DNA from: an uncultured Archangium sp.
Lineage (GTDB): Bacteria > Myxococcota > Myxococcia > Myxococcales > Myxococcaceae
DNA length: 27,519 bases
Reading direction: 5' to 3'
NCBI GenBank assembly: GCA_903905455.1
Contig: CAIVGN010000022.1
Coordinates: 1-27,519, forward strand
The translations under genes were made by a program, and so were the position numbers. This document shows positions 6,716 to 25,207 of this stretch, in pieces. The notes under the pieces are model-generated. The model ran no database searches, was not told the origin of the DNA, and saw only the letters and a program-made list of their open reading frames with translations. Position 1 is the stretch's first letter; every line of letters begins with the position of its first letter.

Positions 6716-7081
6716 CTAGAGGCCCGCGTAGCGCTGGGCGGGCGCGGGCTGGAGCACGGCCTCGAGCCCGGGCAGGCGCAGGTCGAGCACGTCGGGCCAG
6801 TCGAGCCACACCCCGCGGCAGGCACTGCACGTCTCCACGGGGATGACGCCCGGCAGCAGCACCGGGGTCAGCGACAGGGTGCAGGTGGGGCAGCGCCGCG
6901 CCGTCTGCGCCGAGAGCGGCTCGAGGGCCACCTCGCCGCCCAGCACCTGCTCCAGCTGCAGCCACGTGAACCACGCCCCGCCGCAGGTGCAGCCGGACAA
7001 CGACCCCGCGCGCCCGGCCACCACGCAGGCGCGGCCCTCGAGCGGCAGGTCGCAGTCGGGGCAGCGCAGCGGGCTCACCAC
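6716..7081 (-). CDS. Tandem zf-TFIIB-type zinc-ribbon protein (121 aa as terminated by TAG)
   Basis: Two C-x2-C...C-x2-C-G-G-x-W modules are present: CPDCDLPLEG...CTCGGAWFTW and CPTCTLSLTP...CSACRGVWLDW. GC3 is very high. The GTG start at 7081 or 7078 overlaps the TGA of the upstream REC-EAL gene, giving a GTGA coupling. The gene ends at an in-frame TAG at 6716-6718. See the extension feature and the finding. Confidence 0.7.
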   Translation of the reverse strand: MVSPLRCPDCDLPLEGRACVVAGRAGSLSGCTCGGAWFTWLQLEQVLGGEVALEPLSAQTARRCPTCTLSLTPVLLPGVIPVETCSACRGVWLDWPDVLDLRLPGLEAVLQPAPAQRYAGL

Positions 7082-8223
7082 ACCGGCACGGCGAAGTCGG
7101 GCACCGGGCGCCCGAAGCGGTAGCCCTGGGCGAGCCCGCAGCCGAGCTCGGCGGCGACGTCGCGCTCCCCGAGGGTCTCGATGCCCTCGGCCACCACCAG
7201 CACGCCCAGGTCGCGGCACACCGACGACATCGAGGCGACCAGCTTGCGCTTGAGCGGGCTCTTGTCGACGTCGCGCACCAGCGACATGTCCAGCTTGACG
7301 ATCTCCGGCTCGAGCTGGACGAAGCTGGAGAGCCCCGCGTAGCCCGCGCCGAGGTCGTCGATGGCCACCCGGCACCCGAAGCCGCGCAGCAGGGCGATGC
7401 GCTCGGACACCCCCTTGATGGAGTCGAGCGAAGCGCGCTCGGTCAGCTCGAGCACCAGGCGCTTGCTGGACGCGGGGTGCTCCGCGAGGGTGCGGTACAG
7501 GGTGTCGTCGTTGAGGTCGTCGGGGTGGAGGTTGATGAAGAGGCTGAAGTCGCCGGGCGCAGCCTCGAGGGCGGCCAGCGAGAGGGCGCGAATGCGCTGG
7601 CCCAGGCGCGGCAGCTGCCCCAGCCGCTCGGCCGCGTCGAGCACCGCGCCGGGGTGCGGCAGCATCGGCTCGCGGCTGCGCATCAGCGCCTCGTAGCCGA
7701 ACAGCTTCCCGCCCACCTCGATGATGGGTTGAAAGGCCATCCACAACGAGTCGAGGGCCCGCTCGAAGCCGCGCTCGAGGGTGCCCCGGTCGCTGGCTTC
7801 GCCGAGGTTGGCGTTCATGGCGCTCAGGGCCTCGCGCTTGAGCCGGCCGAGGCGGTACACGTTGACCGCGCGGGTGACGCTCTCGATGAGGAGCGGCACG
7901 GGCACCGGCTTGAGCAGGCACTTCATGATGCCCAGGTCGATGGCCTGGGCCGCGGTCTCGGCGGACAGCGTGCCGGTCAGCAGCAGCACCGGGAGGTCGG
8001 CGTCCTTCGAGCGCAGCGCCCGCAGGAACTCGATGCCGTTCATGTTGGGCATGGCCACGTCGGTGGCCACCGCGTCGTAGTGGCCGTCGCGCAACAGCTC
8101 GAGGGCGAGCTGCCCGCTGAGCGCGGTGCTCACCTCGAAGCCGGCGCGGGTCAGCACCCGGGTGTAGGCCTGCAGCACCGCTTCGTCGTCGTCGACCAGC
8201 AGCACCTGTCCGTGACTCGCCAT
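7075..8223 (-). CDS. Response-regulator receiver (REC) plus EAL-domain protein (c-di-GMP phosphodiesterase)
   Basis: ATG at 8221-8223 (minus strand) gives MASHGQVLLVDDDEAVLQAYTRVLTRAGFEVSTA...DVAMPNMNGIEFLR...LLLTG (REC, with phospho-acceptor Asp). The EAL domain follows: FQPIIEV...YEALMR, ELTER, AIDDLGAGYAGL, EGIETLGE...LGCGLAQGYRFGRP. The stop is at 7075-7077. The table ORF extends upstream to 8658, but that segment is Arg/Pro-rich with no similarity to any protein family I recognise. Confidence 0.9.
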   Translation of the reverse strand: MASHGQVLLVDDDEAVLQAYTRVLTRAGFEVSTALSGQLALELLRDGHYDAVATDVAMPNMNGIEFLRALRSKDADLPVLLLTGTLSAETAAQAIDLGIMKCLLKPVPVPLLIESVTRAVNVYRLGRLKREALSAMNANLGEASDRGTLERGFERALDSLWMAFQPIIEVGGKLFGYEALMRSREPMLPHPGAVLDAAERLGQLPRLGQRIRALSLAALEAAPGDFSLFINLHPDDLNDDTLYRTLAEHPASSKRLVLELTERASLDSIKGVSERIALLRGFGCRVAIDDLGAGYAGLSSFVQLEPEIVKLDMSLVRDVDKSPLKRKLVASMSSVCRDLGVLVVAEGIETLGERDVAAELGCGLAQGYRFGRPVPDFAVPVW

Positions 8224-8335
8224 GGGTCCACCTCTTGGTGCGTCGTAGGAGAGTAGGCCGGAGCGGTCAAACGGCGCTTGGCGGAAAATGGCGCGCATCA
8301 CTTTTCGCCGCGCCCCCCCGGCAGCGCCGCACCCT

Positions 8336-8924
8336 TCAGCGCTGCTGCTCGAGCTGGGCGAAGGCGCCAACCAGCCGCTGCAGTGCCTCTGCGACGCTGG
8401 CCGAATGCATGGTGGCCAGCACCAGGTGACCGGTCTCCGCCGCGGCGAGCGTGAGGCGCATGACCTCGGGGTCGAGCAGCGCCTGCTCGAAGGACGGCGT
8501 GTCGCGGCCGACTTCGCGCTGGCGGATGAAGGACTTCCGCGGCGGGAGGGCGTACTCGACGGGGCTCTCGATGGTGATGATGTGCCGCGCTTCGCGCAGG
8601 TTGATCTCCTGCAGCAGCGCCGCGAGCGTGGAGGTCTTCCCCCCACCCGTCGGCCCACACACCAGCACCAGCCCGTGCGTGGGCTGGACCAGCCGCACCA
8701 GGTCGGGGTGCAGGTTGAGGCTCTTGAGGGTGGCGTGGGAGTTGGTCAGCAACCGAACGGCGAAGCCCACGCCGCGGCTGGTGCGCAGCACGTTGAGGCG
8801 GCAGCGGTTCCCCCTGGATCTTCAGGTTCCCCCGAATCCGGAAGGTGGCCGGGAGCCCACCTTCGAGGTGTACGTCGCTGGCGCCCTGGTCCCGCGCGCT
8901 CTCAATCAACGTCTCGATTCTCAT
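8336..8924 (-). pseudogene. pilT: Decayed PilT/PilU-family type IV pilus retraction ATPase relic (frameshifted, internally deleted, C-terminally truncated)
   Basis: The PilT N-terminus MRIETLIESARDQGASDVHLEGGLPATFRIRGNLKIQGEPLPPQ is read from ATG 8922-8924 in one frame. The core, read in a second frame (table ORF 8336..8791), gives NVLRTSRGVGFAVRLL...GLVLVCGPTGGGKTSTLAALL...HIITIESPVEY...REVGRDTPSFEQAL...LTLAAAETGHLVLATMH. The Walker A box is intact. Roughly 45 aa expected between the two pieces are missing. The Walker B/Asp-box segment (DPDIILVGEMRD in PilT) is reduced to DPEVMR. The reading frame stops roughly 100 aa short of a normal PilT C-terminus. Confidence 0.75.
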
Positions 8925-9980: not shown

Positions 9981-11825
9981 GTGTCCCAAATGCGCTCGAT
10001 CCTTGTCCTGGTCTCCGTTCTGGCGGCCTGCAGCTCTCCCGTACCGGCCAATGACGGAGGGGCGGGCGGCGGCACCGCGGGCGGAGAGACGGGCGGCGGC
10101 ACCGCGGGCGGAGGGACGGGCGGCGGCACCACCGGCGGAGGGACGGGCGGCGGCACCACCGGCGGAGGGACGGGCGGCGGCGGAGCGACCTGTCTTCCGG
10201 ACGGCGGCGTCACGCGGGTGTGTTCCGCCACGAACCCGCTCGCCATCGTGAACCAGGACAGCTGCGGTGGGCGCACGCTCGTCGGCAACTGTGCGTCGAC
10301 GGCGCCCTGCACCGTGTTGGCTGATGCAGGGGTCGGCTGCGTGTGTCCGTTGGGCTCCAATCCTCAGCTCAAGTGTCACACCGCGGGGGCCGTCAGCGGC
10401 CCGGCGGAGACGACCCTGGGGCTCGTCAACAGCTGCGGCATGCTGTTGCCCGAGGTGGTGCAGACCTGCCTCATCGGTGAGCGCTGCTGGTACACCTTCA
10501 ACGCCGACGCAGGCATCAACCCCACGGCCAACGAGTTCTGCGCCTCGTCGATGGATCCCTCGCAGCGCATGAGCGCGTTCTACCCGCTGGCCTGCGACGA
10601 CGACCTGTACATGGCGGCGACCACGAGCCTGGAGATGGATTGCCGGTGCAACCGCGCCAACACCCTGATGCAGGAATGTCGCCCTGGATCCGACGCGTGG
10701 ACCGCGGGCCTGCGCCGCGGCGTGGGGCCGAACGCGTACGGCATCAACCTCGCCAAGTGGGGCGGCGGCTTCATTCACCAGGGCGAGCTGTACGCGGTGG
10801 TGCACTACACCAACCCGAACGTGGCGACCCTCAAGCCCGGCGCCATCTACGCGTTCAACCTCACCAACGGGAACCGTCGCGTGGTCTCGGGTTCGTATCT
10901 GGACCCGACCAGCGGTCGCGTCGACGTGGGCAGCGGCTACACGCCGCAGGGCGAAGCGTTGCCGTTCCTGGTCGACGCCAAGCTGGGCACGGATGGGAAG
11001 ATCTACACGATGGGCTCCGACACGCTGAACAACGTGGAGATCACCCGGGTCGACCCGCAGACCGGCGCGCGCACGCTGGTGTGGCGGCGACAGTCGCTCG
11101 CGGAGGCCTCGACTCCCAGCTACCCCTACGGCCAGTGCTTCGATGGTCGGGTGAGCACGTCGTATGCCAGCGGCTTCCTCCCGGTGCAGCCCGACGAGCG
11201 CGCCTTCGCGCTGGCCACCGACGGCAGCTTCTTCGTCGGCTGGAAGGCTGACGGCGTTGGGGTGATGCGCATCAGCGCGGACGGCACCACCTGCACGCAC
11301 GTCTCGCGGTGGGCGTCGAACAACACCACCCAGCCGCTGCCCAACATCGGTACCGGGCTGACGCCGCAGTACGGCACCATCAGCGGGCTGCTCCACCGCG
11401 GCGGCGTGGTCTATGCGTTCACGAACTCCACGCTGCTGGCCATCAACGACACCACCGGCAACCGGACGGCCTTCTCGACCATCTCCACCATTGGCGGCAT
11501 CGGCGAGACCAACTTCTTCGTCGACGAGAACCGACAGCTCCTCTTCGCGTGCGGCACGTCCGCGGCGCGCAAGTGCTCCGTCCACAGCCTCGCCAACGGC
11601 AACACCGCGCAGGGCCTCTTCTCGATTGGGGTGACGCAGCCCGTGTTGCCCGGGAAGTATTCGCAGCTGCAGGGCGCGAAGGGCGCGCTCGATAACAACA
11701 ACTACAATGGCTACGGCGCGGTGGCGCTCGACCCCACCAACCCCAACGTCTTGTACTTCGTCATTCTGGCAGGGCTCGTGCGGTACGAAATCGACACCGG
11801 CAACTCGTACATCATGTCGATGTAG
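9981..11825 (+). CDS. Secreted lipoprotein with an N-terminal Gly/Thr-repeat linker, a Cys-rich module and a probable beta-propeller-like C-terminal region
   Basis: The signal peptide MSQMRSILVLVSVLAAC carries a lipobox L-A-A-C. The true start may be ATG 9990. A (GGGT[A/T]GG[G/E]T)n low-complexity linker follows. At least 20 Cys lie between aa 70 and 240. The long C-terminal region is rich in G/T/N/S and beta-strand-like. GC3 is high throughout. Confidence 0.8.
   Translation: MSQMRSILVLVSVLAACSSPVPANDGGAGGGTAGGETGGGTAGGGTGGGTTGGGTGGGTTGGGTGGGGATCLPDGGVTRVCSATNPLAIVNQDSCGGRTLVGNCASTAPCTVLADAGVGCVCPLGSNPQLKCHTAGAVSGPAETTLGLVNSCGMLLPEVVQTCLIGERCWYTFNADAGINPTANEFCASSMDPSQRMSAFYPLACDDDLYMAATTSLEMDCRCNRANTLMQECRPGSDAWTAGLRRGVGPNAYGINLAKWGGGFIHQGELYAVVHYTNPNVATLKPGAIYAFNLTNGNRRVVSGSYLDPTSGRVDVGSGYTPQGEALPFLVDAKLGTDGKIYTMGSDTLNNVEITRVDPQTGARTLVWRRQSLAEASTPSYPYGQCFDGRVSTSYASGFLPVQPDERAFALATDGSFFVGWKADGVGVMRISADGTTCTHVSRWASNNTTQPLPNIGTGLTPQYGTISGLLHRGGVVYAFTNSTLLAINDTTGNRTAFSTISTIGGIGETNFFVDENRQLLFACGTSAARKCSVHSLANGNTAQGLFSIGVTQPVLPGKYSQLQGAKGALDNNNYNGYGAVALDPTNPNVLYFVILAGLVRYEIDTGNSYIMSM
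10062..10185. repeat. Roughly 4.5 tandem copies of a 27-bp unit (GGGCGGCGGCACC[A/G]C[C/G]GGCGGAG[A/G]GAC) encoding GGGT-rich nonapeptides
   Basis: The repeat is read directly from the sequence. The last two full copies are identical. It lies in frame within lipoprotein 9981..11825. Confidence 0.85.
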
Positions 11826-11840
11826 CCCTGCCAACCGACC

Positions 11841-11858
11841 GGCCGGGCCGACCCGGCC
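11841..11858 (+). terminator. Possible GC-rich stem-loop terminator after the lipoprotein gene (no U-tract)
   Basis: GGCCGGG-ccga-CCCGGCC lies 16 nt after stop 11823-11825. There is no T-run after it. Confidence 0.25.
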
Positions 11859-12247
11859 GTCACGAGCATCGCGGGCGGAGGCGTGCCGTGCCTGTCGGGA
11901 CACGCAGACCGCGAGGCGTCAGAGGCCTGAGCGAAGGCTATGGCGGTGCGTGGCCAGGGGAGAGGGCCTCGGCGGTGGCGTGGTGGGTGACGACGGCACG
12001 GACGCGGCGCCCGATGCGCTCGCCTTCGCGGTCGACGGCCACGTCGAGCTTGGCTTCGGACAGCGGAGGACGGCACGCCGAGTGGGCCACGCGGCGCTTC
12101 ACCAGGGCCACCGCCGTCAGCTCCAATGCGGACCTGGCGCGGTGAATCAACCGGGGTCGACACTGGCGGCAGGAAGGCGCGCTTATCCGCCGCGCTCACC
12201 ATTGTCGGGGAGGGCCGCCCAGCCGTGTACGGTGCGTTCACTCTCCC

Positions 12248-16614: not shown

Positions 16615-18729
16615 TCACTTCTCCTCGCGCATCCCCGGCAGGCCGGCGAGAAGCCGCTGCGCCACGTCCGACACCGACTCTCCACCCAGGATGGCGAGGG
16701 GCGAGAGGTTCCGGGTGAGCGACGCGGCGAACTGCTGGTTGCCCAGGGACTTGAGGGTCGCCACCAGTTCGGGGTGGAGCGCGGCCATCTGTTCCTTGAA
16801 GGCGGCGGTGCGCGCCACCAGGCGCTGCGTTTCGAGGGCCACGCGCCGTTCCTTCGCCAGGCCCTCGGCGCTGGAGGTGATGGCCAGCGCCTCGGCCTCG
16901 GCGCGGGCGCGACCCAGGGCCTCGAGACGCACGGCCTCGCCATGGGCCTCCACCTGGGTGAGGTGCAGCGTGCGGCGAGCCAGCTCGAGCTCGTTCTGCA
17001 CCCCGAGCGTCTCGCGCTGCGCGGCCCAGATGGCGCGGGCCACGGCCTCGCGGGTCTCCTCGGTCTGCAGGCGCAGGTGCTCGCCCTTGCGCGCCACCTC
17101 GGCGGTGATGGCGGTGCGCTGCGCGTCGGTGAGCAACGCCTCCACGGCCTCGTCGAGGATGCGCACGTCGAGCACCTCTACGTCGGACAGCGCCATGCCG
17201 TTCTCTTCGAACTCGCGGCCGCTGCGCTTCTCGGCCTTCTTCTCGCCCAGCAGCGCGGTGCGCAGAATCTCCGCCGAGGCCGCGTGGAAGCGCTCGATGG
17301 GCGTCAGCCGCACGGCGGCGCGCACGATGCTCCCCAGGTGGTCGCACAGCAGGCCCACGTAGTTCGACACCGAGAACCAGCGCGCGTCGTCGACGCCGTC
17401 GCGGTGCACGAAGCCCACCCGGTACGAGAGGCGCACCTCGAGCTCCACGTGGTCCGCGGTGCGCACCCGCACCACGTCGCTGACCTTGTTCCCCTCCACG
17501 CGCAGGAAGCAGGTGGTCAGCAGCACCTCGTCGCGCTTGGGCGTGCCGGTGGAGAGGGCCAGCGCCTCGAGCGACTCGTCGAAGGCCAGCACGCGCACCG
17601 CCGGGCCGCGCAGCACCTCGCGGGTCTGGGTGCCGGTCACCAGCACCGCCTCGCCGGGGGGCACCACCACCGTGGGCGCCCGCGAGGCGTCCGCGCGAGA
17701 GAGGCCCCAGCGCCTCGCCGTCTCGGGGTCGAGCACCCGGCTGACGCGCTCGACCTGGGTGGGGTCGGGCAGCAGCGCCAGCGGGCCCTCCACGGTGCGC
17801 ACCGCGCCGGTGTGGAGGTCGCGCAGGTAGACCGCCTCCTTCGCGGCGAGCTGCACCGCGGCCACCTCGCCCAGCACCTCCAGGGCCTCGGAGGGGAAGA
17901 AGTAGCCCTCGCGGGCGTGCACGAAGAGCTCCTGGCCCGGCTCGTAGCGGCCCTTCGGCACGGCCTCGCCCTCCTGGGCCTCGAAGCCCTGGAGCACGCG
18001 CACGTGGAGCCCGCGGTCGCGCTTGAGGGGCCAGGCGGCGCACACCCGGGTGCCGTTCTTCACCAGGAACTCTTCCCACGCCTCGGGGAAGACCACGGCC
18101 GGCCCGCGCTCGTAGCGCCTGCGCCCCTTCGGCCCGCGGAGCACGCAGTACTGGCCGTCGAGCAGGGTGACGGCGTTGCGCACGTAGCTGCCCTTCTCGT
18201 CGGGGAGCACCTCGAGGCCGGTGGGGGGAATGAAGAAGCTCACCTCGCTGCCCTTGATGATGCGCTCGGTGCCGATGGCGGCGCTCTCCCCGTCGACCAC
18301 GTCGTAGACGCGCAGGCGCAGGTACTGGTCTTCGGAGAGCTCGTGGCCCGCGACGACGCGCGCCTTCTGGCCGGGCCAGAGGGGAAAGGTGGCCGGGCCG
18401 GGCACCACCACGCGGCGCCCCACGCGCAGCTCCACCGCCGAGTTGTTGCCCTTGACCGGCCGCATGGCCGGGTCCTTCGCGGGGTTCTCGAGCACCAGGT
18501 ACTGCGCGCTGGACGCGGTGACGAAGGGCTGGACGCCGTTGCCCTCTTCGCCGCGCATGGGGGTGAAGCGGTCGAGCTTGAGCTCCACGAGGCGCTCGGT
18601 GTTCGACAGCGAGATCTTCGTGGGGCCCACGTAGAGCACGATGTCGCCCTTGGTGAGGTCCTGGACGTAGGCGTACTCGTTCGATGCCACGAGGATGTCG
18701 CGTTCCCTGCTGCTGTCCCGGTCGGCCAT
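16615..18729 (-). CDS. Bacterial homologue of the major vault protein (MVP): N-terminal MVP repeat domains, SPFH-like shoulder and a long cap-helix coiled coil (704 aa)
   Basis: ATG at 18727-18729 gives MADRDSSRERDILVASNEYAYVQDLTKGDIVLYVGPTKISLSNTERLV, which parallels the human MVP N-terminus ([39 protein letters not shown]). The repeat region contains IIKGSEVSFFIPPTGLEV (compare MVP VVKGEKSFFLQPGEQLEQ) and GQYCVLRGP (compare HNYCVILDP). The shoulder reads ARWFSVSNYVGLLCDHLGSIVRAAVRLTPIERFHAASAEILRTALLG (compare MVP [47 protein letters not shown]). A coiled-coil segment of roughly 130 aa follows (ARKGEHLRLQTEETREAVARAIWAAQRE...LETQRLVARTAAFKEQMAALHPELVATLKSLG). The stop is at 16615-16617. The table ORF begins 22 codons upstream, but Met23 aligns with the MVP start. 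Confidence 0.85.
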   Translation of the reverse strand: MADRDSSRERDILVASNEYAYVQDLTKGDIVLYVGPTKISLSNTERLVELKLDRFTPMRGEEGNGVQPFVTASSAQYLVLENPAKDPAMRPVKGNNSAVELRVGRRVVVPGPATFPLWPGQKARVVAGHELSEDQYLRLRVYDVVDGESAAIGTERIIKGSEVSFFIPPTGLEVLPDEKGSYVRNAVTLLDGQYCVLRGPKGRRRYERGPAVVFPEAWEEFLVKNGTRVCAAWPLKRDRGLHVRVLQGFEAQEGEAVPKGRYEPGQELFVHAREGYFFPSEALEVLGEVAAVQLAAKEAVYLRDLHTGAVRTVEGPLALLPDPTQVERVSRVLDPETARRWGLSRADASRAPTVVVPPGEAVLVTGTQTREVLRGPAVRVLAFDESLEALALSTGTPKRDEVLLTTCFLRVEGNKVSDVVRVRTADHVELEVRLSYRVGFVHRDGVDDARWFSVSNYVGLLCDHLGSIVRAAVRLTPIERFHAASAEILRTALLGEKKAEKRSGREFEENGMALSDVEVLDVRILDEAVEALLTDAQRTAITAEVARKGEHLRLQTEETREAVARAIWAAQRETLGVQNELELARRTLHLTQVEAHGEAVRLEALGRARAEAEALAITSSAEGLAKERRVALETQRLVARTAAFKEQMAALHPELVATLKSLGNQQFAASLTRNLSPLAILGGESVSDVAQRLLAGLPGMREEK

Positions 18730-18863
18730 GGGGAGGCGCAGAGCCAGAGACGTGCCACGCGCAAGGCGGCGGGACGGCGCGTGAGGCTGCACCACCCTGG
18801 CCCACGGCGCACCGTGTTGGAGCCCCCATGCCCCGAAACGGGTGACATACTCTCGCGCGCTTC

Positions 18864-20624
18864 ATGGCTCCCCCGCGCGCGAAGACCGCCTTCACCCTCA
18901 CCGTCACCAAAGACGGCGCGAGCGTCATGGCCACCTTCGAGAGCGGCGCGGCGCGGCTGGGGCGGGCGCCGGAGAACGACGTGGTGATCAACGACGCGCT
19001 CGCCTCGCGCGTGCACGCCCGCATCTTCCACGAGGCCGGGCGCTTCTTCGTCGAAGACCTGCAGAGCACGGCGGGCACGCGGCTCAACGGGGGCCGGCTC
19101 GCCGCGCGGGCCGAGCTCAAGCCGGGAGATCGCCTCGCCATCGGCCAGGTCACCGTGCTCTTCACCACCGGGGTCGACCCCGCGTCGACGCTCGACGAGT
19201 CGGCGCGGCCCGCCCCCAGCGTGCTCGACCAGGCGACGACCCTCCGGCCTGCCTTCACCCCGCCTCCCCCTCCGCCTGCACAGGGCGCGGCCACCGGTCT
19301 CGACGCGTCGACGGTGCTGCGGCCGGCCTTCAGCCCGCCCCGGCCCAGCGGCACGCACAAGGCCGCGCCGGCGCCGGCGGCCACCAGCGAGAGCTTCAGC
19401 GACGTACCCACGGTGGAGCTCGTCAACCGGGGCCTGGTGAAGCCCCCCACCCCGGTCGCCACCAGCGAGAGCTTCAGCGACGTCCCCACGGTGGAGCTCG
19501 TCAACCGCGCGGTGCTCCAGGGCCCGGCCCCCGCCGGCGCCAGCGCGTGGGACGGGAAGTTCGAAGACGCGGCGACCCGGGAGTTGCTGCCGGGCGAGGC
19601 GCTCGCGAAGTCGTCAGCCGCCAAGGACCTGCTGGCCGAGCAGCCCACGCGGTCGCTGACCGAAGAGAGCAACCGGCTGCTGGCCGCCGACGTGGCCCGC
19701 GAGCGGCGGGCGCTGCAGAAGACGAGCGCCGGCCGCGCGCAGCTGTGGTGGGCGTCGGTGCCAGCGGCGTTGAAGGCCGCGCTCGCCGTGGTCCTGATGC
19801 TCACCTTCACCGCGGTGGTGTGGGTGCAGCAACCGACGGCGGCTCCGACCGGGCCCCGCATGCCCGACGAGCTGGTGCCCAACGGCGACGCGCTGGCGCT
19901 CTCGTTCGGCGCGGGCCCGGGGGCCGAGGTGCAGGTCGCCGAGTCGAAGGCCTTCTTCTTCACGCCCTTCGCCGCGACCCGGCTGGTGGGCGTGCTGCAC
20001 TTTCGCGCCCACGACTGCGGGCAGAACGAGGTGCACATCGAGCTCAACGGCGCGCCGGTGGCCTTCGTGCCCGCCGACACCGCGCAGAGTGACGTGGAGC
20101 TGGAGCATGTGTTGCCCTCGGGGCTGCTCAAGGTGGGCGCCAACAACCAGCTCACCTTCGAGAACGTGCGCCAGGGCGACGACGACGAGACCTGGCGCAT
20201 CGCCGGGCTGTGGGTGGAGCTGATTCCCCTGCCGGAGCTCACCAGCCAGCAGGCCAGCACCCGGGCGCAGGACTCCATCGACCAGGCCACCCAGCTCTAC
20301 GAGCTGAAGAAGATCGGCGCCATCAACCTGTTCCGCGCGTGGAAGAGCTACCGCGAGGCCTGGCTGGTGCTCGAGGCCACGGCCGACCACGACGCCGCCC
20401 TGCAGCAGTTCGCCCTGACGCGCATGCGCGACCTCCGGCCCGAGCTCGACCAGAAGTGCACCGCCATCCTCGTGCAGTACGAGCAGGAAATGAGTCGGCG
20501 GTACCCCAGCCTCAAGAAGGCGCGGAAAATTTTGCAGGGCGTCCCGGCGCACTTCGGCAAGGAGCACCCCTGCCTCGACATGAGCCGGCACCTGCTGCGG
20601 CAGGTGAGCGAGGACGCGAAGTAG
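18864..20624 (+). CDS. FHA-domain protein with a Pro-rich repeat linker, one TM helix and a C-terminal domain of unknown function (586 aa)
   Basis: The FHA domain reads GRAPENDVVINDALASRVHARIFHEAGRFFVEDLQSTAGTRLNGGRLAARAELKPGDRLAIGQVTV. A Pro/Ala-rich linker follows, with a 2x26-aa tandem repeat. The TM helix is LWWASVPAALKAALAVVLMLTFTAVVWV. The C-terminal domain of roughly 270 aa is probably extracytoplasmic. It is divergent from the MVP gene, with a 134-bp intergenic gap. Confidence 0.85.
   Translation: MAPPRAKTAFTLTVTKDGASVMATFESGAARLGRAPENDVVINDALASRVHARIFHEAGRFFVEDLQSTAGTRLNGGRLAARAELKPGDRLAIGQVTVLFTTGVDPASTLDESARPAPSVLDQATTLRPAFTPPPPPPAQGAATGLDASTVLRPAFSPPRPSGTHKAAPAPAATSESFSDVPTVELVNRGLVKPPTPVATSESFSDVPTVELVNRAVLQGPAPAGASAWDGKFEDAATRELLPGEALAKSSAAKDLLAEQPTRSLTEESNRLLAADVARERRALQKTSAGRAQLWWASVPAALKAALAVVLMLTFTAVVWVQQPTAAPTGPRMPDELVPNGDALALSFGAGPGAEVQVAESKAFFFTPFAATRLVGVLHFRAHDCGQNEVHIELNGAPVAFVPADTAQSDVELEHVLPSGLLKVGANNQLTFENVRQGDDDETWRIAGLWVELIPLPELTSQQASTRAQDSIDQATQLYELKKIGAINLFRAWKSYREAWLVLEATADHDAALQQFALTRMRDLRPELDQKCTAILVQYEQEMSRRYPSLKKARKILQGVPAHFGKEHPCLDMSRHLLRQVSEDAK
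19380..19535. repeat. Tandem direct repeat, 2 x 78 bp, in frame in the FHA-protein linker
   Basis: ATSESFSDVPTVELVNRGLVKPPTPV is followed by ATSESFSDVPTVELVNRAVLQGPAPA. The DNA is near-identical over about 55 bp of each unit. Confidence 0.85.
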
Positions 20625-20674
20625 GCAGAAGCGCGCTGCCGAACGCGGCTCGGATCCGCTAGCCTTCGCGGCCG

Positions 20675-21505
20675 GTGCGTCGTCCTCGAGCCAGTCGCGT
20701 AGGCAGGGTCCTCGGGGGCGCGGCGCTGCTGGGCGCGGTGCTCGGCGCGGCCCTGGGCGCGGTGAACGACCGGTCGCTGGAAGCCGCGCAGGCCGAAGTG
20801 CTCAGCGCTTCCCCGGGCGCGGCGAAGTGGGTGCTCTCGCCGCCGCGGCCTTCCCCCGAGGCGCTGGCCGCGCTGCCCCCGTTCCCCGACGCCGAGGCCC
20901 GGGCGCTCTTCTCCTCGAGCACCCTTTCGGGCACGCCGCTGGGCATCGCGTGGTTCTCCACGAAGTGGCCGGTGGAGTCGGTGCTCGCCTACTACGCGGA
21001 GTACTTCCGGCTGCTGTCGCGGCCCGCGGTGCGCCACCTCTACTCGCCGTCGTCGGGCTACGTGGCGTGGTTGGAGACGGACGCGGTGCGCAGCCCGGGG
21101 CGCGGGGCGCTGCACATGGTCTCGGCCCTGCGGCAACGCGACGAGACGGTGGTGTTCCTCTCGGTGAACGACCCGCTGGCCCTGACCCAGGCGCCGCCCG
21201 AGGCCCTGCCCGACGACGTGGCGGTGCCGCCCCGGGGTACGCCGCCGCGCGTGTTCCGCCAGCTCGACGAGGGCCGCGCGGTGCAGGTCATCGGGTTGTC
21301 GGTGCCGGCCCAGAGTCCCGAGGACGTGCTCGCCTTCTACCGGGCGCACTTCACGGACACCGGCTGGTCGCTGCAGGACGTGGAGCAGGTGGACGGGCTG
21401 CAGGTGCTGGTGGCGTCGCGCGGCAAGTCGCAGCAGACGGTGCTCGCCTCCCGGTCCGGCCCGGGCGACGTCGACGTGGTCATCTCGCGGGAGGTGCACC
21501 CGTGA
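20675..21505 (+). CDS. Hypothetical signal-anchored or secreted protein (about 276 aa; start uncertain)
   Basis: The N-terminal hydrophobic segment is VLGGAALLGAVLGAALGAV. The first 8 codons have low GC3, so the true start may lie downstream. GC3 is high from about 20700. The stop TGA 21503-21505 overlaps the GTG of the next gene (GTGA). The ORF sits 50 bp downstream of the FHA gene. Confidence 0.55.
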   Translation: MRRPRASRVGRVLGGAALLGAVLGAALGAVNDRSLEAAQAEVLSASPGAAKWVLSPPRPSPEALAALPPFPDAEARALFSSSTLSGTPLGIAWFSTKWPVESVLAYYAEYFRLLSRPAVRHLYSPSSGYVAWLETDAVRSPGRGALHMVSALRQRDETVVFLSVNDPLALTQAPPEALPDDVAVPPRGTPPRVFRQLDEGRAVQVIGLSVPAQSPEDVLAFYRAHFTDTGWSLQDVEQVDGLQVLVASRGKSQQTVLASRSGPGDVDVVISREVHP

Positions 21506-22299
21506 GGCGCCGGGGCCAGGCCGCGGTGGAGACGGCGCTGGTGATGCCGCTGTTCGTGTTCCTGGTCCTGGGCACGCTGCAGCTCTCGCTGGTGCACCAG
21601 GCGCGGTTGATGACCAAGTACGCCGCGTACAAGGCGGCGCGGGCGGGCTCCATCGGCAGCGCGGCGTGGAACGACATGGACACGGCGGCCCTGGCGGTGC
21701 TGATGCCCATGGCCAGCAGCGGGGCGGCGGGCATCGAGCGCGTGTTCCCCGCGACCACCCCCACGGAGTGGTCGCGCTCGTGGGAGAAGATCAAGGACAA
21801 CCGGCAGTCACCGCCCATCCCCTACGTGGTGGTGCAGGTGTGCAACCCCACGCTGCCCCGGCTGCGCGCCCAGGCGGCGGCGGCGGGCATCGACCTCAAC
21901 AAGGGCGTGGACTTCGACGACCCGCGGCTGCTGGGCGACGCGTGGGCCACCTACAACGTCACGCGGCTGCAGGTGCAGGTGACGTTCTACTACCGGATGC
22001 CCATCCCCTTCGCGAACGCCATGCTGTGGATGATGGCGCGCGGGGTGGAGCACGACGACGCGGTGCGCACGCTGCGCATGACGCCGGGCACGGTGCGCGA
22101 GAGCCTCAACCCCAACGGCGGCAAGCGCACCATCGAGAAGGTCCCCATCCAGGAGCGGGCCGACGCGCACGAATACATCCTCCCCATTCGCGCCTCGTGG
22201 GGCATGCGCATGCAGTCCAAGCTGTGGCCCGACCTCGAGGGCTTCGAGCTGCCGGACACCAACCTGTGCTCGGTGCCGTGGAAGAAGGAGGGCTCGTGA
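21502..22299 (+). CDS. TadE-like (Flp-pilus-assembly pseudopilin-like) N-terminal domain protein, 265 aa
   Basis: The N-terminus VRRRGQAAVETALVMPLFVFLVLGTLQLSLV matches the TadE-like family (R-G-x-A-A-V-E-F-A-L plus a hydrophobic helix). The remainder is a Cys-containing domain of about 200 aa. Starts and stops form GTGA overlaps at both ends. Confidence 0.8.
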   Translation: MRRRGQAAVETALVMPLFVFLVLGTLQLSLVHQARLMTKYAAYKAARAGSIGSAAWNDMDTAALAVLMPMASSGAAGIERVFPATTPTEWSRSWEKIKDNRQSPPIPYVVVQVCNPTLPRLRAQAAAAGIDLNKGVDFDDPRLLGDAWATYNVTRLQVQVTFYYRMPIPFANAMLWMMARGVEHDDAVRTLRMTPGTVRESLNPNGGKRTIEKVPIQERADAHEYILPIRASWGMRMQSKLWPDLEGFELPDTNLCSVPWKKEGS

Positions 22300-23939
22300 A
22301 GCACGCCCGGCGGGGACAGGTGTTGGCGCTGGCGTCGCTCTCGGTGCTCTTCATGGCGCTGACCATGGCCATGAGCTTCAGCATCTCGAGCGCCATCCAC
22401 GAGCGCATCCGGCTCCAGTCGCAGGCCGACGCGCAGGCCTTCTCGGTGGCCACCATCGAGGCCCGCGGGCTCAACGTGATGGTCTACACCAACCGCACCA
22501 TCGCGGCCCTGGTGGTGACCAACATGTCGGTGCACGCGTGGCACGCCATCGCCTCGCAGACCGAGAACATCCTCGCCTCGAGCCAGGCGGGCATGCTCCA
22601 GGTCGCGGCCCAGGAAGACGCCTGCTGCGAGCGCAGCGGCCACGGGCGCCGCAGCCCCCCCGAAGACCGCGACGCGTGCTGCAACGACGCCGACCGGGCG
22701 CGGGAGATCTCCGCCGCCTTCGGGGCCGAGGCCCAGAAGTGGGACACCCTGCTCATCGGCACCGAGCCCGCCTTCAACGAGACCGTCGACGGGCTGAACA
22801 AGGCCGCCGCGGCGATGCACGTGCTGCAGAAGCGCACCCTGGAGCGCGTGGCCACCGAGGTCAGCCAGCCCACCGTGGGCACGCTCAAGGTGCTCAAGGA
22901 GCGCAACGCCCCGCGGTCCGAGTACGTGCCCGCGCTGCACGCCGTGAACCGCACCGAGTTCTCGTGCGCCGTCGAAGGGTGGAAGGAGCCCGACGACTGC
23001 CGCACGCTGATGGGCCTGACGCTGCCGCGCCTGACGCCGCCCAAGCGCAGCGTGATCATCGAAGACGTGTCGAACGCCGCCCGCGGCTCGTTCCAGCAGT
23101 ACTGCGCCAAGGGCCAGTGCGAGGCCGTGGGCCACCCCGACTTCCAGCCGAGCTCGGCCTACCTGCTGGGCATCATGGGCGGCGAGGGCAGCGTGTGCCT
23201 GGGCTTCGACGGCAAGGCCGGGGTGACCAAGCTGGCCCACACCCTGCCCCCGCGAAACACCTTCGAGGCCGAGTCGGTGGGCGCGGAGACGGCGGGCGGG
23301 TTGATGGTGGGCTGGCGCCACGGCAAGGGCTCGGGGTCGCTGGTGAGCAACGCCTTCTCGGACGAGGCGGGGGGCGTGCACGGGCCGGGGCACAGCGGGC
23401 GCCACGACCAGTTCCGCGGCATCCAGCGCCAGGAGGTCTGCCAGCGCACCGAGTCGTGCTTCATCAACTTCCGCGGCCTCGACCCCAGCACGCGGGGCCG
23501 CACCAAGGGGGGCGACGAGGTGGCGCTCTCGCTCAAGGACAACGATCTCGGCCTGCCCAGCGCCTGGGGCGTGGTGAAGCAGGACCTGGGGCTGCTGCGC
23601 TCGGGCAAGAAGGGGCCGTGGCAGCTCAACGACGAGGGCACGGTGACGCTCAAGTGGGGGCCGCACGTGAAGGCCACGGCGCACCTCGCGCCGGGTGAAG
23701 GCGTGGCGGTGGCCAAGGCCAAGGTCTACTTCCACGAGCTGGGCAGCGACCGGGTCCCGGTGCCCAACCTCTTCGACCCGTTCTTCCGCGCGAAGCTCGA
23801 GCGCTTCCGCTGCCTGGAGCTGGTGGAGGTGCTGATGCTCGCCGGTGACGTCGAGGGCGCGACGCTGGTGCGGGAGCTGCGGGCCCCGGTGGAAGGTCAA
23901 CGACAGATGTCGGGCTGCACGGCCGAGGAGGCAGAGTGA
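22296..23939 (+). CDS. Large TadG/Tad_N-like protein, 547 aa
   Basis: The N-terminus VKHARRGQVLALASLSVLFMALTMAMSFSISSAIHERIRL matches the TadE/G-like (Tad_N) family. A Cys-rich central region follows (CCERSGHG...DACCNDADRAREI...). GC3 is high. GTGA overlaps are present at 22296-22299 and 23936-23939. Confidence 0.8.
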   Translation: MKHARRGQVLALASLSVLFMALTMAMSFSISSAIHERIRLQSQADAQAFSVATIEARGLNVMVYTNRTIAALVVTNMSVHAWHAIASQTENILASSQAGMLQVAAQEDACCERSGHGRRSPPEDRDACCNDADRAREISAAFGAEAQKWDTLLIGTEPAFNETVDGLNKAAAAMHVLQKRTLERVATEVSQPTVGTLKVLKERNAPRSEYVPALHAVNRTEFSCAVEGWKEPDDCRTLMGLTLPRLTPPKRSVIIEDVSNAARGSFQQYCAKGQCEAVGHPDFQPSSAYLLGIMGGEGSVCLGFDGKAGVTKLAHTLPPRNTFEAESVGAETAGGLMVGWRHGKGSGSLVSNAFSDEAGGVHGPGHSGRHDQFRGIQRQEVCQRTESCFINFRGLDPSTRGRTKGGDEVALSLKDNDLGLPSAWGVVKQDLGLLRSGKKGPWQLNDEGTVTLKWGPHVKATAHLAPGEGVAVAKAKVYFHELGSDRVPVPNLFDPFFRAKLERFRCLELVEVLMLAGDVEGATLVRELRAPVEGQRQMSGCTAEEAE

Positions 23940-25207
23940 GGCGAGCCCCCCGAGGCGCGGCGATGGTGGAGCTGGCGCTGCTGATGATCGTCCTGGTCCC
24001 GATGATCCTCTACACGCTCTTCCTGAGCGACCTGCTGCTCTACAACCTCGACTGGCAGGAGGCGGTGACCAGCCCGGCGTGGGACGCGGCGCCGCTCGAC
24101 TTCCCGTCGCTGTCGAGGCCGGTGGAGGCCGCGGCGCGGGTGCAGGCCATCGACCGCAAGGTGTTCTGCGACCACAGCTCGGCCTACGACTCGTTCAACA
24201 CCGCGGTGGACTGCGCCGACGACCGGCACCACCAGGCGCTGGGCGCGCACCAGTGCTGGATGGGCGGCGGCAAGCAGGTGACGTGCGGGGTGAACCCCGG
24301 GCTGGGCAACGTGGAGCAGAGCTACAACCACCGCTTCAACCGGGGCGGGCTGCTGAGCTGCACCGCGCGCTTAGGCGTGCAGAACTACCTCATCGTGCAG
24401 AAGTTCCTCTCGTGGGGGCAGGACCTGACGCGCACCAGGAAGTTCGAGGGCACCGACGTGCACGGCAACGCCAGCAGCGCGTCCACCTCGAACGCGTGGG
24501 TCTTCGGGGCGCAGGGCAGCGGCGCGAGCTCGCCGTCGGAGATCGAAGGCGAGCCGGGCACCTCGCAGACCGAGACCGAGGACCTGCCGTCGGGCACCAC
24601 GCGCAGCGACGACTTCTTCGCCGTGCTGCACGACCCGTGGGCGCTCAACCACCTCGCCACCATTCTCCCGGACGACGGGCAGCGCGAAGCGCACCCCTTC
24701 TACGCGCGCGTCGAGCACTACTACTACTCGCAGTCGCCGGTGCCCGAGGAGCGGCCGGGGGTCGACGGGGCCGAGACCTACGCGGGCAAGCTGCAGGCGA
24801 TGGGCGCCCTGGGCCCGACGGCCAACACCGAGCAGAACGAAGACGCGATGGGTGACCTGCCGCTGGTGCCCAACCTCGCCTTCAAGGCCGCGAAGGACAT
24901 CGACGGCGTGCTGGGCTTCGTCAAGCAGCCCGGCGGCGGCCGGATGATCAGCATGGGGCCCTGCTTCTCGCACGGCTGCCGCTTCGACGCGCCGCCGGTG
25001 CCGCCGCCCGACCTGGGGCTGATTCCCCCGGACCCGGACAACCCGAAGGGGGGCGAGATCCCCGGTGGAGGTGGGCCGCCGACGCCGGTGGGCGCGCCGC
25101 CGACCGCGCACGCCACGTCGGGCGCCACGCCGGCCATGACCGCCGCGGCGAACGCGCCCTCGCCGCCGCCCGCGCCGACCTCGGCCCCGCCGCGCTCGCC
25201 GTTCTGA
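23936..25207 (+). CDS. TadE-like domain protein with a Pro-rich C-terminus, 423 aa
   Basis: The N-terminus VRRAPRGAAMVELALLMIVLVPMILYTLFL matches the TadE-like family. The sequence contains conserved-looking Cys residues. The C-terminus is PPVPPPDLGLIPPDPDNPKGGEIPGGGGPPTPVGAPPTA.... The stop is at 25205-25207. Confidence 0.8.
   Translation: MRRAPRGAAMVELALLMIVLVPMILYTLFLSDLLLYNLDWQEAVTSPAWDAAPLDFPSLSRPVEAAARVQAIDRKVFCDHSSAYDSFNTAVDCADDRHHQALGAHQCWMGGGKQVTCGVNPGLGNVEQSYNHRFNRGGLLSCTARLGVQNYLIVQKFLSWGQDLTRTRKFEGTDVHGNASSASTSNAWVFGAQGSGASSPSEIEGEPGTSQTETEDLPSGTTRSDDFFAVLHDPWALNHLATILPDDGQREAHPFYARVEHYYYSQSPVPEERPGVDGAETYAGKLQAMGALGPTANTEQNEDAMGDLPLVPNLAFKAAKDIDGVLGFVKQPGGGRMISMGPCFSHGCRFDAPPVPPPDLGLIPPDPDNPKGGEIPGGGGPPTPVGAPPTAHATSGATPAMTAAANAPSPPPAPTSAPPRSPF

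Follow-up and report, generated by a model that had tools for sequence, protein, structure and literature searches.

The rat vault is a hollow, two-halved barrel with 39 copies of major vault protein (MVP) in each half. Eukaryotic MVPs (rat Q62667 and human; PDB 4V60, 4HL8, and 9BW5) comprise nine repeats, a shoulder, and a cap-helix, for which a 2023 preprint gives 42 turns in rat (bioRxiv 10.1101/2023.11.10.566534). Self-assembly into vault shells requires no protein other than MVP (Stephen et al. 2001). What vaults do has been debated since 1986, and bacterial homologs could provide a simpler study system. Daly et al. (2013) described bacterial MVP homologs with about 25% identity to eukaryotic MVP, among them those of the myxobacteria Corallococcus and Plesiocystis (PMC3762200), and Sokolskyi (2019) reported homologs in Myxococcales, Cytophagales, and Oscillatoriales (bioRxiv 10.1101/872010); the published bacterial forms, with a Band_7-like shoulder, come from Myxococcales and other gliding bacteria. 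The 2023 preprint added MVPs of phages and a mean bacterial MVP length of 822 residues, and in 2026 Asgard MVPs with five repeats were described in a paper that still placed prokaryotic homologs “in only a few Bacteria” (PMC12962969). Here, we analyze a stretch of 27,519 nucleotides from contig CAIVGN010000022.1 of an uncultured Archangium sp. (hereafter, the window; G+C about 71%), in which a minus-strand gene at 16615-18729 encodes a 704-residue MVP-like protein. Because bacterial, phage, and Asgard MVPs have been published, this kind of protein is already known; the short clade described below adds a new member to it and reveals neither a new kind of system nor a function.

MVP homology, domain layout, and predicted fold

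Sequence and structure comparisons effectively settle that the 704-residue protein is a true MVP homolog and not a generic SPFH protein. The MVP_shoulder model (PF11978) matched residues 414-526 with 103.2 bits (E = 1.2e-29; cut-off 25), covering 116 of the 118 profile positions. Vault_3 matched residues 367-407 with 27.7 bits, just below its cut-off of 28.8, and a weak Vault_2 match was found at residues 73-122 (E = 0.013). Band_7 (PF01145) was not detected in the Pfam search even at E <= 1, and no NCBIfam model matched the protein. Among 43 relatives, MVP_shoulder and Vault_3 were present in all, Vault_4 in 31, and Band_7 in a single one (E = 0.0037). In a single-sequence search of PDB, MVPs were the sole matches (E = 7e-30 for both rat and human), with a co-linear alignment of query residues 188-651 to rat MVP 275-765. 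Identity to eukaryotic MVP is about 22-26%. A profile of the 43-sequence family matched rat MVP with E = 6e-53 (profile positions 150-640 against rat 243-775), a co-linear stretch of about 490 positions that spans repeats R5-R9, the shoulder, and the cap-helix. A separate profile of residues 1-125, the part outside these two alignments, was compared with 177,635 PDB sequences; all seven matches at E <= 10 were MVPs (best E = 0.014), and they fall on MVP repeat units.

Aligned blocks of the query and rat proteins include 'GQYCVLRGP' / 'RHYCVILDP' and 'AEILRTALLG' / 'ARIIRMAVFG', and the shoulder block 'FSVSNYVGLLC..SIVRAAV' is likewise present in the alignment to MVP. The motif blocks that an earlier note, made from the DNA alone, had quoted for this protein were therefore found in the MVP alignment, with one correction of register. 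The 'KGxxxSFF..PGExLE' motif (query residues 158-175) pairs with rat R5 and not with the rat 'KGEKSFFLQPGERLE' copy in R6, and so represents the same repeat motif with its register shifted by one unit.

An AlphaFold2 (AF2) monomer model was built from a 104-sequence alignment that included distant relatives; a model based on 43 close sequences had performed poorly over residues 1-185. The predicted local distance difference test score (pLDDT) was 87.3 overall and above 90 for residues 10-530. The model consists of seven all-β units, an α/β shoulder, a single long helix, and two shorter helices (residues 653-682 and 686-695). In a Foldseek search of PDB, twelve full-length MVP chains ranked on top (E = 1.7e-38 to 1e-31, TM-score up to 0.60), followed by four repeat-only crystal structures of mouse R1-R7 (E ~ 1e-17; 1.4e-17); SPFH proteins appeared only at about 1e-6, with the similarity confined to the shoulder and helix. 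Both the Vault-family matches and the mouse R1-R7 fold place MVP-type β-repeats in the N-terminal region. The earlier note had named two outcomes that would speak against an MVP homolog, profile hits limited to the generic SPFH/Band_7 fold and a closest structural match to SPFH-type proteins lacking the repeats; neither was obtained, because MVP-specific profiles match and MVPs outrank SPFH proteins structurally, repeats included. Its proposal of an MVP homolog, with the three MVP regions in order, was borne out by these searches, by the alignments, and by the folding of the repeat, shoulder, and cap-helix regions in the monomer model. The vault wall and cap modules (repeats, shoulder, and cap-helix) are all retained in order, but the label “full-length” is generous in that there are two repeats fewer and the segment after the helix lacks detectable similarity to the cap-ring.

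The number of repeats is about seven in 413 residues, as estimated from the secondary-structure elements in the model, from a profile self-comparison that matched residues 58-218 with residues 175-324 (internal repetition at a two-unit offset), and from the register to rat R5-R9, for which we take the rat repeat boundaries to be those of Tanaka et al. 2009. This is fewer than the nine of human MVP, as the earlier note had stated; it does not exclude the protein from the MVP family, given that accepted homologs vary (five in Asgard MVPs). The alignment pairs units 3-7 with rat R5-R9.

From the N-terminus, and always on the minus strand, repeat 1 (residues ~10-60; 18550-18702) shows β-strands at 11-57 with pLDDT above 90 and the highest conservation in the protein (3.79 bits). 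It is possibly equivalent to eukaryotic R1: the N-terminal profile aligns co-linearly to rat residues 10-45, and also to the start of R8. Because R1 and R8 score alike, the assignment is weak, and a one-to-one match to eukaryotic R1 was dropped as ambiguous. Repeat 2 (~61-121; 18367-18549) has strands at 66-115 and contains the Vault_2 match and part of the self-similar region. Repeat 3 (~122-184; 18178-18366; strands 122-174) aligns with rat R5, where profile position 150 meets rat 243. It is followed by repeat 4 (~185-230; 18040-18177), which carries the 'GQYCVLRGP' block and aligns with R6, repeat 5 (~231-290; 17860-18039), aligned with R7, and repeat 6 (~291-352; 17674-17859), aligned with R8 and containing a short helix at 335-340; all three are also delineated in the model. 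Repeat 7 (~353-413; 17491-17673), aligned with R9, contains the Vault_3 match and an 'LSTGxPK' loop. The SPFH-like shoulder (residues 414-526; 17152-17490), an α/β fold with pLDDT above 90 on which SPFH structures superpose, leads into the cap-helix (residues 527-649; 16783-17151), a single predicted α-helix by DSSP of the model that aligns to rat ~647-775. The helix is 123 residues long, close to the ~130 residues given by the earlier note, and corresponds to about 34 turns, compared with ~150 residues and 42 turns in rat.

Beyond the cap-helix lies a C-terminal module (residues 650-704; 16618-16782, minus strand; 'PELVATLK..LSPLAILGGESV..RLLAGLP') that is hydrophobic, with a mean hydropathy of +0.39, and is conserved in bacterial MVP-like proteins, its last 50 residues being shared by short and long bacterial forms. 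The consensus is 'PxLxAALxxxGDxxL...LxPLAxLGGxSV...LLxGxP'. Alignments to rat MVP stop near query residue 651, so that the module is beyond the alignable region, and a profile of this C-terminal family found nothing, MVP included, at E <= 10 in PDB or Pfam. Judged by sequence, the module is specific to bacterial MVP-like proteins. As the profile found no match, a flotillin-like C-terminal “roof” motif, considered as a candidate, is unsupported.

The shared shoulder raises the alternative that the protein forms a membrane-apposed single dome, as do SPFH cages such as HflK/C, flotillin, stomatin, and prohibitin, instead of a closed two-halved vault: the dome would be built from the shoulder and helix, while the repeats or the hydrophobic C-terminal module would touch either the membrane itself or a protein embedded in it. 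SPFH/Band-7 cages (also erlin and QmcA) are membrane anchored and lack MVP β-repeats, whereas the query has about 400 residues of such repeats, foreign to SPFH proteins, as its best-conserved part, and escapes detection by Band_7. The maximal 19-residue hydropathy window is 1.09, so that the protein has no transmembrane segment, and there is neither a signal peptide nor a hydrophobic N-terminus. The C-terminal profile matches neither flotillin nor any SPFH tail. Finally, no linked NfeD-like or FtsH-like partner was found among the neighbors of 61 related loci, in which genes were called by a codon-usage model trained on the MVP gene of each locus and the resulting 761 proteins were clustered. 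We therefore regard the dome as an unlikely arrangement for this protein.

A short clade within a large bacterial family

When 1.84 billion cluster representatives (clusters at 50% identity) were scanned exhaustively with HMMER, 1,142 clusters proved to be related at E <= 1e-3, of which 878 reached E <= 1e-10 and 523 reached E <= 1e-30. The prokaryotic MVP-like family is thus far larger than the “few Bacteria” cited in 2026, and the rarity and novelty implied by the earlier note were overstated, given the literature since 2013 and these >1,100 clusters. The best 150 of the 1,142 clusters have a median length of 859 residues and are 35-45% identical to the query; JGI annotates several of them as “major vault protein.” A word-indexed search returned >525 relatives, mostly “hypothetical,” with a few JGI names (“major vault protein” and “HflC”), and the named relatives come from metagenome-assembled genomes (MAGs) of Myxococcota (often labeled Archangium sp.), Planctomycetota, and Acidobacteriota.

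The long forms retrieved share every domain and the C-terminal module with the query, which is about 150 residues shorter. Compared with them, the query is missing 55-100 residues beyond residue 342 and another 20-60 beyond residue 148; the long relatives closest to it (P0121 and P0124) instead have insertions of 140-214 residues following residue 177. Repeat content is thus modular within the bacterial family. In a neighbor-joining tree rooted on the rat MVP segment, the sequences at least 54% identical to the query form a clade, apart from the long bacterial forms, in 40 of 40 bootstraps; the ~700-residue, seven-repeat form is thus a robust sub-clade of the bacterial MVP-like family. Published long bacterial proteins include those of Saprospira grandis (H6L4P8), Microscilla marina (A1ZGE7), Plesiocystis pacifica (A6FXM1 and A6FXE2), and Enhygromyxa salina (A0A0C2D5V5); the published mean of 822 residues and the domain positions of the Saprospira protein suggest that these UniProt entries belong to the long group.

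In a scan of GTDB species representatives by two peptide patterns, which other relatives can escape, all 64 loci with close relatives were in MAGs. Across these searches, the ~700-residue clade was found only in uncultured MAGs, mainly of Myxococcota and also of Planctomycetota and Acidobacteriota. Close short-form relatives were also found in MAGs labeled Methanosarcinales (38% identity), Clostridia, and Blastocatellia, at loci with a GC content of 0.34-0.39 as against 0.72 here (L069, 8299-10614; L026, L027, and L003, ~10001-12217); these reflect either wide horizontal spread or mis-binned contigs.

Two other groups of prokaryote-associated MVPs were compared with the short clade, the Asgard group by its published description. 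Asgard MVPs likewise have a cap-helix, a shoulder, and a reduced number of repeats, and a closed cup of smaller size has been predicted for them (PMC12962969); they have five repeats and group partly with eukaryotes, whereas the query has about seven and groups with bacterial forms. MVPs of human gut Caudoviricetes phages share the prokaryote-type architecture of the query (bioRxiv 10.1101/2023.11.10.566534), but they are ~811 residues long and are encoded in phage genomes, whereas the query gene lies in a chromosomal context without a PHROG match.

The open reading frame of the MVP-like gene spans 16615-18795 on the minus strand and would encode 726 residues if read from GTG; an internal ATG at 18729 yields the 704-residue protein, with the stop codon at 16615-16617. 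We take this ATG as the start because the N-terminus M-A-[D/E]-R-D is common to 43 relatives, gene calls on public contigs (NCBI, ENA, and Logan) include an identical 704-residue protein (P0001), and the 22 extra residues of the GTG-start form have no counterpart in relatives. The complete coding sequence is accordingly 16615-18729, as in the earlier note. With dN/dS values of 0.16-0.36 in comparisons with relatives of 80-86% amino-acid identity, the gene is under purifying selection and is maintained.

These data bear on the proposal that the gene was recently acquired from a eukaryote or a phage, or is a decaying relic without function in the host. Daly et al. raised the possibility of eukaryote-to-bacterium transfer for some bacterial MVPs (PMC3762200), phage-borne MVPs have been reported (bioRxiv 10.1101/2023.11.10.566534), and the short clade extends over several phyla and genome GC contents from 0.34 to 0.72. 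Recent transfer from a eukaryote is at odds with the identity of rat MVP to 104 bacterial sequences, which is 21-29%, compared with 35-89% among the bacterial forms themselves. Codon composition is native: G+C at third codon positions is 0.95 in the MVP-like frame and 0.89-0.97 in the neighboring genes. A decaying relic is hard to reconcile with dN/dS well below 1 and with a frame that is intact in dozens of genomes. A phage or defense-system origin was rejected since neither PADLOC nor PHROG produced a match in the window and no phage genes are nearby. Recent acquisition or decay is thus largely refuted, and we consider it highly improbable.

Stand-alone gene and putative shell assembly

We consider it probable that the gene encodes a prokaryotic-type MVP of the short, ~7-repeat sub-clade, in a high-GC genome of Myxococcota type, and that this protein forms a soluble, self-assembling, vault-like shell without a partner protein. 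Apart from the MVP gene itself, no neighbor family is conserved across the 61 related loci, so that the gene is effectively stand-alone, which fits MVP self-assembly without partners. Its stand-alone position, together with the purifying selection, makes a minimal shell of one protein plausible.

From the observed homology, domain order, fold, purifying selection, and lack of a conserved partner, we infer what follows on oligomerization, closure, copy number, and cargo. Many MVP copies would pack side by side, as in eukaryotic MVP, with the long cap-helices bundling laterally into a cap, the SPFH-like shoulders forming a ring, and the seven β-repeats making up the wall of a half-shell that is soluble and cytoplasmic. 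Two of these may join via the very conserved N-terminal repeat, whose top conservation is what one would expect if it formed a homotypic interface. The particle would be hollow and, with two repeats fewer in each half, shorter than the eukaryotic vault, and it would assemble without a dedicated partner. Its physiological role can only be guessed at; sequestration or stress protection might be considered.

Several observations weigh against a vault-like shell. The cap-helix, which would pack into the cap, is the least conserved region of the protein (2.67 bits) and has a pLDDT of only 60-80; it shows no significant hydrophobic or conservation periodicity compared with shuffles, so that heptad or hydrophobic periodicity was dropped as a sign of helix packing. 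The segment after the helix has no detectable relation to the eukaryotic cap-ring. The non-protein and accessory components of eukaryotic vaults are also missing from view: no Rfam family, vault RNA included, and no tRNA was found in the window; no TEP1 or PARP homolog is present among the window genes; and no TEP1-like or PARP-like (PARP4-like) family recurs beside the relatives in the clustering of neighbors, in which not every neighbor was domain-annotated. By the single-sequence alignment, the NAD+/ADP-ribose pocket of human MVP appears to be mostly not conserved. This pocket comprises R437, R504, K506, R507, P508, H509, R511, L517, D521, W545, P565, and K573, with variable conservation among animals (PMC12280208), and only three of the 12 residues are identical in the query (K506/K398, R507/R399, and L517/L409); D521 aligns with N414. 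Lastly, no assembly data for any bacterial MVP were found in the literature searched.

Some of the same observations, along with the gene neighborhood, could be read as pointing to a non-caging soluble monomer or small oligomer, either a signaling scaffold acting with Ser/Thr kinases and FHA proteins or a nucleotide-binding sequestering protein, a role speculated upon in a 2019 preprint (bioRxiv 10.1101/872010). The lack of coiled-coil periodicity in the cap-helix is compatible with this alternative, and so is the 'LSTGxPK' loop, in which S393 and K398 are invariant and G395 and P397 nearly so among 104 sequences, K398 being the counterpart, by alignment, of K506 in the human “keyhole loop”; however, nine of the 12 pocket residues differ. 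A divergent FHA gene starts 134 bp from the MVP gene, but no FHA or TadE-cluster gene recurs beside relatives at any of the 61 loci, and an Archangium-type relative 81% identical to the query has different neighbors. FHA and TadE genes were thus rejected as functional partners, and this neighborhood is incidental to the MVP gene. Ser/Thr kinases, encoded within 10 kb at 21 of the 61 loci, are among the widely recurring families, together with histidine kinases and ECF-sigma-like proteins. Myxobacteria have very large kinomes, with roughly 100-300 kinases per genome. Because myxobacteria carry very many copies of these signaling families, their recurrence is expected by chance, and the kinase positions (-9 to +7) and strands are scattered; kinase linkage was therefore judged to be coincidental. 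An exposed helix of 123 residues and seven wall repeats are, moreover, hard to account for without lateral packing. We accordingly think it improbable that the protein functions without forming a cage.

Returning to a self-assembling shell, a more specific version can be put forward tentatively, as somewhat less likely to be true than not: short-form MVPs might assemble into closed, RNA-free nanocompartments smaller than eukaryotic vaults, in which the hydrophobic C-terminal module, unrelated in sequence to the eukaryotic cap-ring, would close the cap in its place. Should this be the case, these proteins would represent a widespread, previously unobserved class of bacterial compartments and a prokaryotic prototype of the vault.

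Neighboring genes and minor observations

The earlier note had also pointed to a divergent FHA gene and TadE-like genes nearby; the FHA gene and a TadE-like gene were confirmed in the window. The FHA/YscD-like gene (18864-20624, plus strand) encodes 586 residues and opens a co-directional cluster (18864-25207, plus strand) that also encodes a 255-residue protein (PF27226, AF_1845, by precomputed annotation), the 265-residue TadE-like protein (21502-22299, plus strand), and proteins of 547 and 423 residues without a Pfam match. This cluster appears to be a Tad-pilin-related module. Other window genes encode a CHASE-PAS histidine kinase, a response-regulator-EAL protein, a cNMP-binding protein, an R2K ATP-grasp protein, and an OmpA-like protein. 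The R2K ATP-grasp gene lies near the MVP gene in four close relatives as well, which is synteny by descent.

At the low-GC loci, a B12-binding radical-SAM gene is located two genes downstream of the MVP gene in L003 (13487-14884) and L027, an open reading frame of 124-136 codons lies directly downstream of the MVP gene in L026 and L027 (L005 and L027 are the same contig), and RtcB RNA ligase is encoded at position +3 of one locus. Linkage to B12-radical-SAM or RtcB genes is not general: it was found at only two or three mutually related low-GC loci and not at the other, mostly myxobacterial, loci that were clustered. In a Myxococcales MAG, a gene for a protein with a WGR domain and a WD40 β-propeller (L004, 5105-6568, minus strand) lies upstream of the MVP homolog P0101. 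PARPs can contain WGR domains, and TEP1 has WD40 repeats. Because it was found only once, this proximity is probably a coincidence.

Two further frames in the window have unusual structures. In a plus-strand frame at 1-2718, which runs off the 5' end, the C-terminal part of Topoisom_bac (residues 5-117, profile positions 312-410 of 411) is followed without a frame break by an entire RecQ helicase with DEAD, Helicase_C, RecQ_Zn_bind, and HRDC domains; it looks like a topoisomerase-RecQ fusion. On the minus strand, a 151-residue fragment of a T2SSE (PilB/GspE-type) ATPase (8336-8791), directly upstream of and overlapping the response-regulator-EAL gene (7075-8658), may be a truncated or mis-started gene.

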